NCBI GenBank assembly: GCA_958296235.1
Contig: OY282457.1
Location: forward strand, 217,377-281,376
Direction of reading: 5' to 3'
From: an uncultured Candidatus Binatia bacterium
GTDB taxonomy: Bacteria; Desulfobacterota; Binatia; Bin18
Length of the DNA: 64,000 nucleotides
Each line of letters begins with the position of its first letter. The first letter of the stretch is position 1. Under the pieces are notes generated by a model. That model did not search any database and had not been told where the DNA came from. It was given only the letters and a program-made list of their open reading frames with translations. The position numbers and the translations under genes were made by a program. This document shows positions 2,110 through 55,514 of this stretch, piece after piece.

Positions 2110-3171
2110 CTACCGAAAATGAGGCATGACTTTTTCCGCAAACAGGCGCATGGAGCGTTCAACCCGGTCCTGCGGCAGCCCCCCGAAATTCATCCAGCAC
2201 AGCAGCTCTCCCACCCCGGCCGCCTCCATTTCACGCACCCGGTCCACAATCCGCTCCGGCGAGCCGAACAGCACGGTCTCTGCCACCAACTGTTCCCAGG
2301 TAATACTGGCCAGACGATCGGCCAGGGCGTGAAACTGAGGCTGGAGGGCAGGGGGAGCGGCCTCAATATGATCAGGGACGAGAAAGCGGGCGAGGGCTTG
2401 TTGATACCAGACTTCTGCGGCCTGTGCCTCGCGCAGGGCCTGCGCGTCCGTCGGCGCAACATAGATGTGGCGCGAGACGCCCCACGAATGCAGAGCCGCT
2501 TGTATTGCGGCTTCAGACTGTCCGGCTTCACCCAGGGCGGCAGTATAGATATCCCGATTGTGTTCGATTTGGCTGAACGGACCGAATAGAATGGAATTCA
2601 ACATGGACCAGCCGCTCCTGGCCGCCAGTTGGATGGTCTCGGGACTGACGCAGACGAGCGACAGCGGAGGATGGGGTTTCTGGTGGGGCTTGGGAATGAC
2701 CGGGATGTTTTCAATGCTGAAGAACTTGCCGTGATAGGAGACACGCTCCTGGGTCCAGGCCTGAATCATAACGGCCAGGGTTTCGCTAAAGCGTTCCCGG
2801 TTTTCTATCTGCGGAACCCGGTAGCCGACAAACTCGATGGGCCGATTACCCCGCCCGATTCCAACGCGCAGCCGGCCCTGACTCAGAATATCGACAAAGG
2901 CAATTTCTTCGGCCAGACGAATGGGGTCATGAAAGGGCAGGATGACCGCGGCCAGCCCGATGGTGATGCGTTCAGTCCGAGCGGCAATGGCAGAGGCCAG
3001 CGCCATCGGGCTGGTTGAAATGCCATACTCGATAAAGTGATGCTCGGTCAGCCAGACGCTATCGTAGCCGAGTTCTTCGCTGAGCAGAATCTGGGCAAAC
3101 TCCCGATGAATGACCTCTTCGTGGGAGGTATCTGGGGGAGCCTGAAGAAAATAATAGGTGCCGAAACGCAT
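2110..3171 (-). CDS. LLM class flavin-dependent oxidoreductase
   Basis: GYDSVWLTEHHF, DPIRLAEE, GIGRG, PKPHQKPHPP and SMRLFAEKVMP motifs. Confidence 0.92.
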   Translation of the reverse strand: MRFGTYYFLQAPPDTSHEEVIHREFAQILLSEELGYDSVWLTEHHFIEYGISTSPMALASAIAARTERITIGLAAVILPFHDPIRLAEEIAFVDILSQGRLRVGIGRGNRPIEFVGYRVPQIENRERFSETLAVMIQAWTQERVSYHGKFFSIENIPVIPKPHQKPHPPLSLVCVSPETIQLAARSGWSMLNSILFGPFSQIEHNRDIYTAALGEAGQSEAAIQAALHSWGVSRHIYVAPTDAQALREAQAAEVWYQQALARFLVPDHIEAAPPALQPQFHALADRLASITWEQLVAETVLFGSPERIVDRVREMEAAGVGELLCWMNFGGLPQDRVERSMRLFAEKVMPHFR

Positions 3172-3257
3172 TGAGTTGTCCTTTGGCGATATGAGAAAAA
3201 ATGAAAATTGCTGTTTAACACGACAACGGTTAAAAGGAAGAGACTTGTCGATTAGGG

Positions 3258-3403
3258 AGTGGTTCAGTTTGCTTATTCCCCCTCACCCCAGCCCCGCTCC
3301 CAGCGGGAGCGGGGGCGCATATCCCCTCCCCCCTCTGAGGGGGAGGGCGAGGGGGGGGGCACTCTGCCGGCGGAGGTTAAGAGCGATGTGAAACTGAACC
3401 ACT
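3258..3403. mobile_element. MITE-like element, family A (13-bp terminal inverted repeats enclosing REP hairpins)
   Basis: AGTGGTTCAGTTT (3258-3270) and AAACTGAACCACT (3391-3403) form a perfect inverted repeat; a related copy lies at 13394-13563. Confidence 0.7.
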
Positions 3404-49296: not shown

Positions 49297-49785
49297 ATGC
49301 TGATCGAAATCTATCCCAAACCCGACGGCATGCAGCATATCAATCTCATGTTCTGTGAGGCTGAGCCCGAGCCTGAGGACGGCTGGGTCCGCGCTCATAT
49401 TGACGCGTTTCCCACTCCGCCCAAGCGGATTTTTGAAGAGGAACGGGCCGGCCGGACGTATACCACGCTCCAGTACGGCCAGTGTGTTATCGGGCATTCC
49501 ATGTTCTATATCGAAAAGCACAAGGGCGTGGTGGACCAACTGCTCGGGGTCTGCGCGAGCGAGCTTGAGCGGGCTGCCCTGGACCGTCCGACGCGCAATG
49601 TGATTGTCTCCCGCCTGGCCCTGGAACTGAATAAAAACGCCCGATTTTCAGTTGACGAGCAGGGCAATCTGACCATTGCTCTGAAAGAGATAGATGAGGC
49701 CGAGATTCACAAACGCCTGGGTGAGCTGATAACCGAAGAAACTCCTGTCCGGCAGGTCGAAGTCGTAGGAAGTGAGACATCCTGA
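49297..49785 (+). CDS. Hypothetical protein
   Basis: 162-aa ORF with RBS GGAG and host-like codon usage over most of its length; no motif recognised. Confidence 0.7.
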   Translation: MLIEIYPKPDGMQHINLMFCEAEPEPEDGWVRAHIDAFPTPPKRIFEEERAGRTYTTLQYGQCVIGHSMFYIEKHKGVVDQLLGVCASELERAALDRPTRNVIVSRLALELNKNARFSVDEQGNLTIALKEIDEAEIHKRLGELITEETPVRQVEVVGSETS

Positions 49786-50021
49786 TGACATCACGACGGA
49801 ATATAAGACGATTAAGACACCCTATGGATTAGCATCCATTGGAGATGGGAATGTTCAAGTGGCTACAACGGTTAGCTTCCTGGATTCTTTCAATTTGGCG
49901 AAGAATCCCGCCGGAAACAAAAAGAGAAATAATCGACGCTATCGTAGACCTTTTTGAAGAGATTCTTAGAGAATATTATCGCCGGTGGAAAAGAAAAAAC
50001 GGAAAGGAAGAATGATAGGCC

Positions 50022-50318
50022 ATGTCTGACTTAAAAAGTTTCATCTTGGACTCAGGATTGCCGTCAAGATTGTCATCAACTGAACTTAAAACTCGAATGA
50101 GCAGGCTTTTACCTGCAGCAGGCATTCTTCCTCCTGGTCGAGATGAGTTTGAACGAGATAGGTTTATTAGCGAAGTAGCGAATTTAGCTCACAGTGAGAA
50201 AATCATCACTTCGCTTAGTGAAGAAGTTGGACAGCCAAAAGAAAACGAATCAGAAGATGAATTCGTAAACAGGGCAAAATCAACTCTGGCAAATCTGCTT
50301 TGGCGGGAAATACAGTAG
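50022..50318 (+). CDS. Hypothetical protein (AT-rich islet)
   Basis: 98-aa helical, acidic ORF in an AT-rich segment. Confidence 0.5.
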   Translation: MSDLKSFILDSGLPSRLSSTELKTRMSRLLPAAGILPPGRDEFERDRFISEVANLAHSEKIITSLSEEVGQPKENESEDEFVNRAKSTLANLLWREIQ

Positions 50319-50427
50319 TGCATGATCTAGTAAAACCTATCAAGCACTGTGCCCTCCGCTTCGTTCGAACACTGAGGGTCGGCATTACAGAATATATACC
50401 TCGAAACCATAGGAAGTGAGGCCTGAT

Positions 50428-51180
50428 GTGGCAGGGGTGGAAGGAAGAGTCGCGCTTATAACCGGAGCCGGGTCGGGTATTGGACGCGCGACTGCGCGGG
50501 TCTTAGCCACAGGCGGCGCCGATATTGTGGTGACCGATATCAACCTGGCTGGGGCTGAGGAAACGGCCCAGACCGTCACGGAATGCGGCCGCAGGGCGCT
50601 CGCGCTCCAGGTCGATGTGGCAGACCTGCATGCCGTGGAAACGGCGGCGACGCAGACCCGCCAGGAGTTGGGCGCGATTGACATTCTGTTCAGCAACGCC
50701 GGCATAGGAACCCAGGTCGCGTTTGCAGACATGACAGAGGAGGACTGGGATCGCATGTTCGATGTTCATCTCAATGGGACGTATCACTGCTTTCGCGCGG
50801 TCTTACCCGAGATGAAAACCGCGGGCTGGGGCCGGTTGATCAGTACCTCCTCTATGGGTGCCTTTACCGGAGGGGTCCGTCTGGCCCACTACTGTGCGGC
50901 CAAGGCCGGTATTGCCGGGCTTACGGTTGCCATGGCAAGTGAGCTGGCGCGAACGGGCATTACGGTCAACGCGGTTGCTCCCGGTGTGATCGATACGCCA
51001 ATGGTCCGGCAGAGTCCTGAGCGCTGGGTCAAGAATATGACCAAGACCATTCCGATGCGCAAACTGGGACAACCCGAGGACATCGCCCATGCCGTCGCCT
51101 ATTTGGCCTCGGAGGAAGCCGGATTCATGACAGGCCAGATTCTCAGTCCGAACGGCGGCTCGTATATGAAGTGGTGTTAA
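50428..51180 (+). CDS. SDR family oxidoreductase (FabG-like)
   Basis: TGAGSGIG, SNAG and YCAAK motifs. Confidence 0.92.
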   Translation: MAGVEGRVALITGAGSGIGRATARVLATGGADIVVTDINLAGAEETAQTVTECGRRALALQVDVADLHAVETAATQTRQELGAIDILFSNAGIGTQVAFADMTEEDWDRMFDVHLNGTYHCFRAVLPEMKTAGWGRLISTSSMGAFTGGVRLAHYCAAKAGIAGLTVAMASELARTGITVNAVAPGVIDTPMVRQSPERWVKNMTKTIPMRKLGQPEDIAHAVAYLASEEAGFMTGQILSPNGGSYMKWC

Positions 51181-52919: not shown

Positions 52920-52932
52920 GGCCTGACCCCTG

Positions 52933-52997
52933 CTCGCCTTGACCACCCGAAACCCAGCGTCTAGGCTCACGTCAACAGCAGCTCAGGAGGTTAGGAA
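52933..52997 (+). promoter_or_regulatory. 65-bp direct repeat, copy 1, containing a sigma70-like promoter and RBS
   Basis: TTGACC (52939-52944), 17-bp spacer, TAGGCT (52962-52967), then AGGAGG; 64/65 identical to 55450-55514. Confidence 0.85.
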
Positions 52998-53009
52998 GGG
53001 GAGAGCGAA

Positions 53010-53813
53010 ATGAGCTTCTACTCTATTTGTAAATCGGATCCTGTCTTGGATTTTATTCGTGATACCTACGACGCAACTCCGTTGAAAATTCCTGATACTC
53101 GAATCAAACCTCTTACTTTATTTACTACTGTAAAACGCCGCTTCCGGTATATTGGGCCTATCAAGGATATTGCTGCGGACAAGGCGTGGAAAAAACTGCG
53201 TCCAGAATCCCAAAAACTGTCAGATATCTCGAAGGTCGAGTCACGAAAACTATCTTGGTCTATTGCCATAGACTTATTGAGCCCATTTCTCGCCCAGAGT
53301 CTAACACCCTCTCTGACTGACACGATGACGAGTCTAAAAGCTTTTCGGAGTACAAGCGTTTGCGTTTCCATTAAGGGCGTGAGGCGGCACTTTATCGCTC
53401 CCAGCAGGGTAGCAAATTTATTGAAATCCGCCCCCATTAATCTAAGAACAATAGATAGCTCAGGGACTCTCCATTTGGTCGACTCCATCCTGGTCGCCCG
53501 TAAGATTACATTAAACATGAATTGCCCTTCTGCAGTTGAGGTCGCAACAAAGCTCGAAAACGCATTGAGTGGTAAGTTTTCGACCGATGCAATCCTTCGC
53601 AGTCAATCGTGTGTCTCTATAGCGGGAAATAAGTTTGTGCCCTTCGCATTCACATGTTTTCAACTACAGATCGACGAATCTGGACGCGCTTCTAGAATAG
53701 AATTTCCATCTTCGGGAGGTCCACAGATCGGAGCTACACCGATGGGTGTAGATTTGCCGCCCACTCACGTCATGCTTGGAGAACCCAATGAATTCGTTAA
53801 AATCGATTCCTGA
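53010..53813 (+). CDS. Bacterial gasdermin (bGSDM), pore-forming cell-death effector
   Basis: 267 aa; N-terminal C7-x-x-DP, P..RIKPL.L, YIG, LSWSIAIDLLSPFL, LHLVDSIL, G...FAFTCFQL, then a Gly/Pro loop and terminal FVKID. This pattern parallels known bGSDMs as recalled; not confirmed by search. Confidence 0.85.
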   Translation: MSFYSICKSDPVLDFIRDTYDATPLKIPDTRIKPLTLFTTVKRRFRYIGPIKDIAADKAWKKLRPESQKLSDISKVESRKLSWSIAIDLLSPFLAQSLTPSLTDTMTSLKAFRSTSVCVSIKGVRRHFIAPSRVANLLKSAPINLRTIDSSGTLHLVDSILVARKITLNMNCPSAVEVATKLENALSGKFSTDAILRSQSCVSIAGNKFVPFAFTCFQLQIDESGRASRIEFPSSGGPQIGATPMGVDLPPTHVMLGEPNEFVKIDS

Positions 53814-55347
53814 CATCACGACAGCCAGAGATTGGATGGAATGTGAGCAAACTAAGATATACAAACAGATGGCGATTCCTGTTCCCGATTCTAAATCCGT
53901 AAATTTCTCACCGGAATGGCTCGAAAAGTATCTAAAGTCGAATCCTGACTATACGCCTGAGCAACGAGCTTCGTTCGCCAAACAATACAGTGATAGAGAC
54001 CCATTGCAAGACCGCTCTGATGTTGGTCGAGTCGGCAAACCTATAAGCGTTTTGATTCTAACTAACCGAGTCGATAATTTAAAGAATGCATGCAAAAGGC
54101 TAAATCTACCAGGAGTGGTTGATAACGTCGTTTTTGGCAACACTCCAGCAGGCGGATTGGGAGTATCTACATGTAGGATTGAAACATCCGACCATTATTC
54201 GGTCTTCATTCCGGACGGATTTTATCACTTAATCAACCTATTCAGTAAATTAGTTGTTCTCTTGCAACCGTTTACCCTTATAGAGGAGGGGGTGGTGTAT
54301 CAACCAGCGGCATCCTTCGATCAGTTTCGCCTCGCCCGGCACCCGTATATTCAATTCCGCCGCCGTGACCTCCTAAGAGCGTTTTTTATCCATGGAGATG
54401 TGGCAGCGGCACTTCCGTACCCCGCGGCAGTGCCGTTTCAAGATCGTTTGGCGTATTTGCTTGAAGGAACCGAATTATTTGTGATCGCACACGAAGTCGC
54501 GCACGTCATTCTCGGACATTTGGATAGAGATATCTCAAAATTCACACCAGATGACGAGTTGGAGGCGGATAAACTTGCATTGGAGATTCTCACTGAACAT
54601 TTTGACACCGAGATGGACCTCCCCGACGTCCGTGCTGCCCTGTGTATGTTTATGTTCCTCTCGATAGTCGATATATGGGAACAATCACTGCCTGCTCTTC
54701 TGTCGGTCGAGAATGAGTCACAAGTTGCTTCGCATCACCCTAAATTCGAGCAAAGGTTCAAACATTATCTTTCCTTACTTGAAGACTTTGCCCGCCGTCC
54801 GAAATTGGAGGAAGCGACAGTACCATGGTACATATTCGTACACCGCGCGATAGGACTTGCTACGGAGGAGTCGGAACGTATTGTATTAGATATTGTCGAT
54901 CAAGCGGGTGGTATAGCTGGAATTAGTGCATCAGTATTAGGGCCAGACAAGCACATGGGGCACTCGAAACCTGCGCCCCCGGACGTTTGGTATCGTACTA
55001 TTGCCGAGTTGATTTTGTCAGATATTTCAGCCAACCGCCGTCTTGGCTTGTGGTTCTTCCTAAAATTGTCTCTCAATTCCTCGATAGCCTTCTACGATGG
55101 CCTATTAGATGACGATGAACCGGAAGTTCAGAGTCTCTATAGGCAGGCATTGATTTCGATAGAGCCGATGTACGAATGGTATTTGCCGAGGCTCTTTGAG
55201 CGAATTCGTGAAGAGACAAGAGACGGACAACAAAAGCAATACAAAGAGCAGATTGCTCAGCATCTTGTATTCAAGGCTTCTCTCGAACTTGGGGGCCGTT
55301 TTGACATGGATCCCATGCATCCTGATTTTTTCAATGATCTTGATTAA
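53788..55347 (+). CDS. HExxH zinc metallopeptidase (M48/U49 Lit-like), candidate gasdermin activator
   Basis: FVIAHEVAHVILGH (HEVAH at 54490-54504), downstream ELEAD and HHP...QR; overlaps the gasdermin stop by 26 nt (start 53776/53788/53836). Confidence 0.78.
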   Translation: MNSLKSIPDITTARDWMECEQTKIYKQMAIPVPDSKSVNFSPEWLEKYLKSNPDYTPEQRASFAKQYSDRDPLQDRSDVGRVGKPISVLILTNRVDNLKNACKRLNLPGVVDNVVFGNTPAGGLGVSTCRIETSDHYSVFIPDGFYHLINLFSKLVVLLQPFTLIEEGVVYQPAASFDQFRLARHPYIQFRRRDLLRAFFIHGDVAAALPYPAAVPFQDRLAYLLEGTELFVIAHEVAHVILGHLDRDISKFTPDDELEADKLALEILTEHFDTEMDLPDVRAALCMFMFLSIVDIWEQSLPALLSVENESQVASHHPKFEQRFKHYLSLLEDFARRPKLEEATVPWYIFVHRAIGLATEESERIVLDIVDQAGGIAGISASVLGPDKHMGHSKPAPPDVWYRTIAELILSDISANRRLGLWFFLKLSLNSSIAFYDGLLDDDEPEVQSLYRQALISIEPMYEWYLPRLFERIREETRDGQQKQYKEQIAQHLVFKASLELGGRFDMDPMHPDFFNDLD

Positions 55348-55449
55348 ACAGCAAATGTTTCTGTGACCGGAACAGTGAATTGACTCCCGGTTTAGTTGGT
55401 TTCCACATTCAACTGGGTAGTGTTATAGCCTGTAGGGCTTCCCCACCTT

Positions 55450-55514
55450 CTCGCCTTGACCACTCGAAACCCAGCGTCTAGGCTCACGTCAACAGCAGCT
55501 CAGGAGGTTAGGAA
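55450..55514 (+). repeat. 65-bp direct repeat, copy 2 (promoter/RBS of the acyl-CoA dehydrogenase gene)
   Basis: Matches 52933-52997 with one mismatch; ends 5 nt before ATG 55520. Confidence 0.88.

Follow-up and report, generated by a model that had tools for sequence, protein, structure and literature searches.

A 64,000-nucleotide (nt) stretch of contig OY282457.1 (GenBank assembly GCA_958296235.1, positions 217,377 to 281,376 of the forward strand), from an uncultured Candidatus Binatia bacterium and referred to here as the window, carries a two-gene cassette in which a bacterial gasdermin (bGSDM) is followed by a predicted zinc metalloprotease with a catalytic core related to that of E. 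coli Lit. A first-pass annotation, made from the sequence alone, had described an AT-richer operon of two overlapping open reading frames (ORFs) at this place, and on reading the sequence both ORFs are present as described and lie on the + strand, the gasdermin before the protease. Gene 1 (53010-53813, + strand) encodes the gasdermin of 267 amino acids (aa) and gene 2 (53788-55347, + strand) the protease of 519 aa, counted from its ATG. The frame of gene 2, which ends at 55347, is open from a TTG at 53776 and contains an ATG at 53788. The ATG is taken as the start because a GGAG resembling a Shine-Dalgarno (SD) sequence lies 6 nt ahead of it, within the end of gene 1 (53778-53781, + strand), and because homologs align from that methionine; the two genes thus overlap by 26 nt. 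An SD-like GGAG also stands 6 nt ahead of the gasdermin ATG (53000-53003, + strand), within the cassette-specific DNA defined below. The GC fraction of the cassette is 0.462, against 0.570 and 0.563 in the two flanks, which confirms the compositional part of the earlier description.

Gene 1 is a bacterial gasdermin by profile, PDB sequence and predicted-fold matches. It matches the PADLOC bGSDM model PDLC02986 (E = 3.1e-33, positions 1-237 of 257) and the NCBIfam model prok_gasdermin NF051890 (E = 1.4e-21), its relatives bear the precomputed tag PF26164, and a phmmer search of PDB sequences returned the Vitiosangium bGSDM entries 7n51 and 8sl0 (E about 3e-8). The AlphaFold2 (AF2) model, built on a 10-sequence alignment, has a predicted local distance difference test (pLDDT) value of 75.1 and a predicted template modelling score (pTM) of 0.75. 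It is disordered at residues 1-7 and 234-249 only, with pLDDT below 50 at 234-249. The proposal that this protein has a gasdermin fold is upheld by Foldseek, in which ranks 1-7 are all bGSDM entries (best 7n51, E = 1.4e-12, template modelling score 0.72) and the mammalian gasdermins GSDMA3, GSDMD and GSDMB rank behind them.

The motifs that had been quoted for the two proteins are all present, and the key residues are invariant or conserved among relatives. In the gasdermin these are Cys7 before DP, LSWSIAIDLLSPFL, PFAFTCFQLQ and the C-terminal ...EFVKIDS. The alignment of ten subfamily gasdermins is invariant at D10, P11, R17, T19, Y20, P28, D29, R31, F212, T215, C216 and H253. Cys7 (codon at 53028-53030, + strand), a candidate palmitoylation site, aligns to Cys4 of 7n51 and is found in nine of the ten. 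The protein has the bGSDM layout, a short C-terminal peptide behind a flexible loop without a large C-terminal domain. The loop, residues 237-253 (53718-53768, + strand), is the candidate cleavage region by its low pLDDT and by its active-site contacts in the complex model discussed below; within it only P238 and A242 reach conservation in 7 of 10 sequences, and His253 is invariant. The peptide H253-S267 (53766-53810, + strand) is the presumed autoinhibitory tail and is conserved as a unit of 15 residues: exactly 14 residues follow the invariant His253 in all ten gasdermins, and each of G257, E261 and D266 is conserved in seven or more of them.

Gene 2 is predicted from its sequence to be a zincin metalloprotease with a Lit-related core. 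The motifs HEVAH, ELEAD and HHPKFEQR can be seen in its translation. The first of them lies in HEVAHVILGH (54490-54519, + strand; H235, E236, H239, H244), the putative zinc-binding and catalytic motif, which is invariant in 32 sequences and aligns to HEISHVVLQH of Lit. In E257-L-E-A-D261 (54556-54570, + strand), which aligns to EREAD of Lit, residues E257, A260 and D261 are invariant, and E257 is likely the third zinc ligand, of the gluzincin type; this role is presumed from the ExxAD motif of M48 peptidases. A third motif, HPxxxxR, is found at H317-P-K-F-E-Q-R323 (54736-54756, + strand), with R323 invariant and P318 conserved in at least 90% of sequences, and aligns to HPAAYER of Lit. Over the 32 aligned relatives the invariant positions are L91, G122, G203, E229, H235, E236, H239, H244, E257, A260, D261 and R323. 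Invariance of the catalytic and metal-binding residues argues that enzyme activity has been retained.

Profile searches place gene 2 near Lit and its relatives. PADLOC model PDLC03011, named 'peptidase_U41' and taken here to be part of the PADLOC gasdermin system definition, matches with E = 4.3e-19 and 67 bits, over profile positions 87-250 of 378 only. Matches to Lit models were also obtained from PADLOC (E = 4.3e-4) and from NCBIfam (E = 3.1e-7, 29.9 bits against a cutoff of 274). When the protease family alignment was compared by hhalign with E. coli K-12 Lit, whose sequence was taken from the annotated e14 prophage, a probability of 82.6% was obtained (E = 9.6e-6, 79 columns), with HExxHxxxxH, ExEAD and HPxxxxR all aligned. 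Since the curated Lit/U49 thresholds are missed, the protein has a Lit-related core and is no Lit orthologue. Among its relatives, the Pfam U49 family PF10463 matches 1 of 32 at E <= 0.01 and M48 matches 3 of 32, and the precomputed tag PF10463 is carried by seven of eight.

The predicted structure agrees with the motifs. The AF2 model of the protease has a pLDDT of 88.4 and a pTM of 0.91. A Foldseek search of the PDB with the full-length model gave no match at E <= 0.001, with proteases appearing only in weak rows (an M61 aminopeptidase and BepA), and a PDB sequence search gave no meaningful match. With VIA-align against 48,161 chains, the top eight rows are all zinc metalloproteases, covering about residues 6-383 of the model. 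The best is the M48 protein BepA (6sar_A, Z 10.7, root-mean-square deviation 3.6, 171 aligned), followed by 3c37_B (Z 10.2) and by M13 enzymes (Z about 9). Z values near 8-13 on helical models call for care; here the sequence motifs lead to the same assignment as the fold. The suggestion of a zincin of the M48/U49 type thus has the support of the alignment to Lit and of the nearest fold, and Pfam finds none of the TPR, WD40 or NACHT domains whose absence from gene 2 had been remarked on.

Behind the catalytic part lies a C-terminal helical domain (about residues 345-519; 54820-55344, + strand), which the AF2 model predicts confidently as all-helical. It is specific to a subfamily of proteins of about 500 aa and is a candidate exosite or sensor. 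These approximately 175 residues have no Pfam match, and the domain is barely probed by the VIA-align rows, most of which cover 12-382. Leads to HEAT repeats for this domain (ESM Atlas, 0.81) were at chance level and were dropped. In an exhaustive HMMER search the number of protease representatives was 327 at E <= 1e-3 and fell to 65 at 1e-10 and to 36 at 1e-30. Strong matches are proteins of about 500 aa that align over their full length, and the weaker ones are proteins of about 400 aa that align over about residues 80-340 only. PDLC03011 scores of five subfamily proteases range from 1e-16/1e-19 to 5e-5, and four of five representatives of about 400 aa have no match to this model.

The association of the two genes extends well beyond the window. 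Seven further loci (designated by L numbers) were retrieved with the protease alignment alone, two of them genomic, from an Acidobacteriaceae metagenome-assembled genome (MAG) and from Reyranella soli, and five metagenomic. In all seven a gasdermin with 33-39% identity lies directly upstream on the same strand, at a spacing of -26 to +82 nt. The gasdermins of L005 and L007 are identical, so the loci count as six independent ones. No further ORF is common to the distinct loci or to the window. Pairing is thus strict within the clade of proteases of about 500 aa, and the survey of homolog neighbourhoods turns out in favour of the earlier suggestion of a gasdermin-protease pair.

A physical association is predicted as well. 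Three predictions of the gasdermin-protease complex scored 0.60, 0.62 and 0.76 (median 0.62), against 0.01 for the best of three controls. The runs have at least 87% of contacts in common, with partner pLDDT of at least 70 and 119-132 confident contacts. Of 80 solved complexes 58 reach the mark used for such predictions, as do 2 of 110 mismatched pairs; these counts are rough here, where our own alignments were used. No solved structure of a gasdermin with a zincin is known to us from which the prediction could simply have been copied. On the side of the metal site, protease residues 232, 235-236, 239, 244-245, 249, 252, 257 and 260 contact gasdermin residues 237-253. Two exosites are predicted in addition, one formed by protease residues 20-32 (the N-terminal helix) and the other by 381-398, 441-443 and 474-482 (the C-terminal domain); the gasdermin residues facing them are 15-21, 66-72, 123-137, 159-164 and 196-199. 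The model supports binding of the two proteins with the gasdermin loop in the HExxH cleft. An earlier guess had placed cleavage in the loop around residues 232-250, and both predictions are in line with it: the loop is predicted to be flexible at 234-249, and residues 237-253 are the ones set in the active site. For the cut itself, a position near the semi-conserved P238-x-x-x-A242 is our guess.

The cassette is a horizontally acquired, accessory element, as can be seen from its insertion site, its GC content and its distribution. It is bracketed by a 69-nt direct repeat, detected by a repeat search, with 67 of 69 positions identical between the copies (no strand assigned). The left copy (52929-52997) is duplicated native intergenic sequence, and the right copy (55446-55514) bears the ribosome-binding site of the downstream acyl-CoA dehydrogenase gene. 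Where the site is empty in genomes of the same genus, the repeat sequence is present as a single copy. In nine of twelve such genomes the desaturase-side and acyl-CoA-dehydrogenase-side flanks are no more than about 130 nt apart, and in four of these nine the flank matches overlap by about 65-80 nt, because the 69-nt repeat brackets the cassette. From the repeat and the empty site, the cassette-specific DNA therefore spans about 52998-55445 (2.45 kb). It begins only 12 nt ahead of the gasdermin ATG (52998-53009), for which reason the cassette seems to have no promoter of its own; a scan for promoters and terminators found three sites of each kind, with no excess over shuffled sequences. The region ahead of the acyl-CoA dehydrogenase gene is present a second time in the left repeat copy, and the cassette may therefore be transcribed from the signals of that gene or by read-through from the desaturase gene. 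It is present in a single copy in the genome, and a search of 40 relatives, among them 24 of the same genus, gave no match to the protease. The PADLOC peptidase model matches 2 of 401 sampled genomes of the phylum, including that of the window, and a plasmid search gave one distant match only.

Similar repeats were found at a second place. In L005, a 260-nt sequence (3099-3356) that starts 67 nt past the protease stop is 96.9% identical to L007:3260-3519, which lies upstream of the gasdermin there; outside this stretch L005 and L007 are 100% identical in sequence. Diverged direct repeats of local sequence thus bracket the cassette in two unrelated genomes, 69 nt long (67/69) in one and 260 nt (96.9%) in the other. 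Repeats of at least 25 nt were not found in L001, L002 and L003. The repeats far exceed the target-site duplications typical of transposases, which suggests that a circular intermediate is integrated by a single crossover. They may shed light on the movement of small defence cassettes.

The computational results establish what the two proteins are, that they are strictly paired, how they are predicted to dock and that the cassette was inserted. From here we infer cleavage, pore formation, a trigger and an anti-phage role, and we regard it as probable that the cassette is a self-contained, horizontally acquired cell-suicide module of a gasdermin and a Lit-like zincin, in which the protease cuts the gasdermin loop and which serves as an abortive-infection defence. 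In this proposal the gasdermin would be kept inactive by its short C-terminal peptide, H253-S267. The protease is presumed to be a cytoplasmic zinc metalloprotease whose Lit-like catalytic core is set in a zincin fold resembling that of M48 peptidases. It would dock on the gasdermin core with its N-terminal helix (about 20-32) and with the helical domain at its C-terminus (about 381-482), and the gasdermin loop 237-253 would be threaded through the HExxH cleft. A cut in the loop would free an inhibitory tail of roughly 15-30 residues, upon which the gasdermin would oligomerise into membrane pores and the cell would die. A phage-derived cue probably licenses the protease and so gives rise to abortive infection; the models for such licensing are Lit and the bGSDM systems that have been tested.

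Gasdermin systems with this kind of partner have been catalogued. In the 2022 review PMC9612521, 'peptidase (Peptidase U49)' is one of the gene labels explained in the legend of Figure 2, where bGSDM operons of Ideonella sp., Runella, Oscillochloris and Sphingobium are listed. Like the cassette, the bGSDM/Peptidase U49 operon of Ideonella sp. 201-F6 (IMG 2684147428) has the gasdermin first and then a Lit-type HExxH peptidase. Both window genes match PADLOC models. In the sections available of a later study, the Ideonella gasdermin, which carries the same IMG identifier as in PMC9612521, assembles pores of about 300 A once A241-G245 have been exchanged for an engineered WELQut site, the native protease being unused (10.1101/2023.04.20.537723); it is thus a proven pore former after an engineered cut in the loop equivalent to that of the window protein. 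What sets the window protease apart from the PADLOC peptidase model is that it is matched over the catalytic part only and adds the C-terminal helical domain of about 175 residues.

The better-studied systems use other proteases. According to the available part of Johnson et al. (10.1101/2021.06.07.447441), 43 of 50 bGSDMs adjoin a protease, mostly C14 or CHAT. In the Runella zeae-type caspase-like (C14/CHAT) systems described there, the N-terminal Cys and the short inhibitory C-terminal peptide are common to the window gasdermin, and the neighbouring protease removes about 20 C-terminal residues; in the window, too, the protease gene is adjacent. Exosite recognition has been proposed for caspase-like bGSDM systems in the consulted portion of PMC9612521, and exosites are suggested in the window by the complex model. 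The enzymes differ: that of the Runella zeae type is a cysteine protease, whereas the window protein is a predicted zinc metalloprotease without TPR, LRR, WD40 or NACHT sensor repeats. The words 'U49' and 'metallo' do not occur in the text available of 10.1101/2021.06.07.447441, nor is the peptidase type mentioned in the accessible sections of the Wein preprint (bioRxiv version of PMC12373157). A literature search that covered papers outside subscription, in their main texts, found no report of bGSDM cleavage by a zinc protease. The earlier claim of an uncharacterised activation route therefore holds within the reach of this search. The pairing itself is known, from the legend of PMC9612521 and from PADLOC. 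The architecture of a gasdermin with a U49-type protease is already catalogued, and PADLOC would flag both genes.

Two families of proteases bear on how the enzyme may work. E. coli Lit, a Peptidase U49 encoded by prophage e14, cleaves EF-Tu in the presence of the T4 Gol peptide. Lit and the window protease would both be proteases with a cell-killing action, which for the latter is proposed by analogy. They differ in that Lit has 297 aa and stands alone, whereas the window protein is 222 residues longer, is paired with a gasdermin and scores far under the Lit equivalog cutoff. The M48 zincins (BepA, HtpX, the Ste24 family) provide the closest solved folds and appear to share the HExxH...ExxAD gluzincin arrangement; unlike them, the window protease lacks a membrane anchor and a TPR domain, and it would serve another biological role.

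Several observations weigh against the proposal or limit it. The predicted interface is no evidence of cleavage, and the model does not name a scissile bond. Because the loop is docked in the active site without any trigger, the model also leaves unexplained how premature killing is avoided. The cassette does not lie in a defence island: none of ten neighbouring ORFs matches PADLOC at 1e-5, and those with Pfam matches are metabolic and the rest unassigned, a housekeeping setting. No relatives were found on viral contigs or in the phage records searched. Curated profiles are missed by both proteins. The gasdermin scores 77.2 bits against NCBIfam prok_gasdermin, under the equivalog cutoff of 100, and has no match in a Pfam scan. 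The Pfam matches of the protease are sub-threshold (M78, 0.0015; M48, E = 0.039 and 14.2 bits, where 20.3 are required), and U49 (PF10463) is absent from them at E <= 1. Two distant protease relatives of the class of about 400 aa, L017 and L018, have no adjacent gasdermin that a hidden Markov model (HMM) of the subfamily would recognise, and for this reason the claim of pairing is restricted to the clade of about 500 aa. At L006:5001-5918 the protease frame is broken: it stops 127 codons past the start of the tblastn match, and similarity runs on to 5918; the copy is either frameshifted or decaying, or the metagenome assembly is in error. The gasdermin of L004 (196-999) has Leu in place of the N-terminal Cys (MGLLSFLQRDP), so that some members of the clade may lack lipidation.

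The setting of the cassette is what gives weight to a different use of the same gasdermin-protease death module, in cassette addiction or stabilisation, in kin or competitor conflict, or in stress-triggered lysis. With no defence genes near and housekeeping surroundings, and with direct repeats around the cassette in two independent places suggesting that it is self-propagating, such a non-phage role is plausible in outline, and the available text of PMC9612521 raises the question of bGSDM action beyond phage defence. We nevertheless consider it unlikely, since a sporadic, horizontally transferred distribution fits abortive infection, as does the kinship of the core with Lit, annotated as the cell death peptidase of prophage e14, and since one bGSDM operon is reported in the same source to defend against phage (PMC9612521).

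The Lit kinship can also be followed in another direction. The protease might act as Lit does, cleaving a host translation factor such as EF-Tu upon infection, with the gasdermin activated otherwise or independent of it. The common motifs and the PADLOC and NCBIfam Lit matches are in keeping with this idea. The NCBIfam score of 29.9 against a cutoff of 274, the mere 79 columns that align to Lit and the 222 additional residues of the window protein speak against it, and a gasdermin substrate is indicated by the pairing in seven of seven loci, by the overlap of the genes and by the predicted docking of the gasdermin loop in the cleft; this alternative is very improbable in our judgement. The size of the predicted interface, with its 119-132 confident contacts and its exosites away from the active site, would suit a protease that is mainly an antitoxin-like binding partner restraining the gasdermin, with catalysis not being the switch. 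The catalytic and metal-binding residues are, however, invariant in 32 relatives, and we rate this possibility marginally lower still. Cleavage of the gasdermin loop by its partner protease in an abortive-infection module is thus the reading that we prefer. A more far-reaching form of it is doubtful: that the cassette represents the first metalloprotease-activated gasdermin pathway, with a pre-docked zincin held by two exosites (the N-terminal helix and the C-terminal helical domain) and licensed, as Lit is, to cut only once the substrate complex has been completed by a phage protein or peptide, the entire set of sensor, protease and effector being carried by a promoterless 2.45-kb inter-phylum cassette that integrates with a long target duplication.

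How gasdermins are activated is understood for cysteine (caspase-like) and for serine proteases, but not for a zinc metalloprotease. The present system is near-minimal: it consists of two genes, lacks a third partner and has no sensor domain of the repeat type. Being minimal, and coming with a testable model of a loop in the cleft and two exosites, the cassette is a convenient entry point for the study of Lit-type infection sensing and of the recognition of a gasdermin that has no large C-terminal domain. Its interest lies in the mechanism of activation by a metalloprotease, in the private C-terminal domain, in the trigger and in the integration of the cassette.

Some observations concern the neighbourhoods of relatives and of the cassette itself. 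The region L018:1371-4876 (Streptomyces rimosus pSRIMDV3) contains a 382-aa distant relative of the protease (hmmsearch E = 4e-44 with the family HMM), directly behind a 714-aa protein with a CN_hydrolase domain and with no gasdermin near; beyond the clade of about 500 aa, zincins of this family seem to be partnered differently. About 630 nt upstream of the gasdermin of the Acidobacteriaceae MAG lies an ORF of 361 aa (L001:3485-4570, - strand) which, by its translation, looks like a transposase of the IS630/Tc1 type. Within the window, a second AT-richer dip is found near 49297-50318 (GC 0.478 at 49500-50499). It covers the ORFs 49135/49297-49785 and 50022-50318, neither of which matches Pfam or PADLOC, and it may be another small acquired insert.

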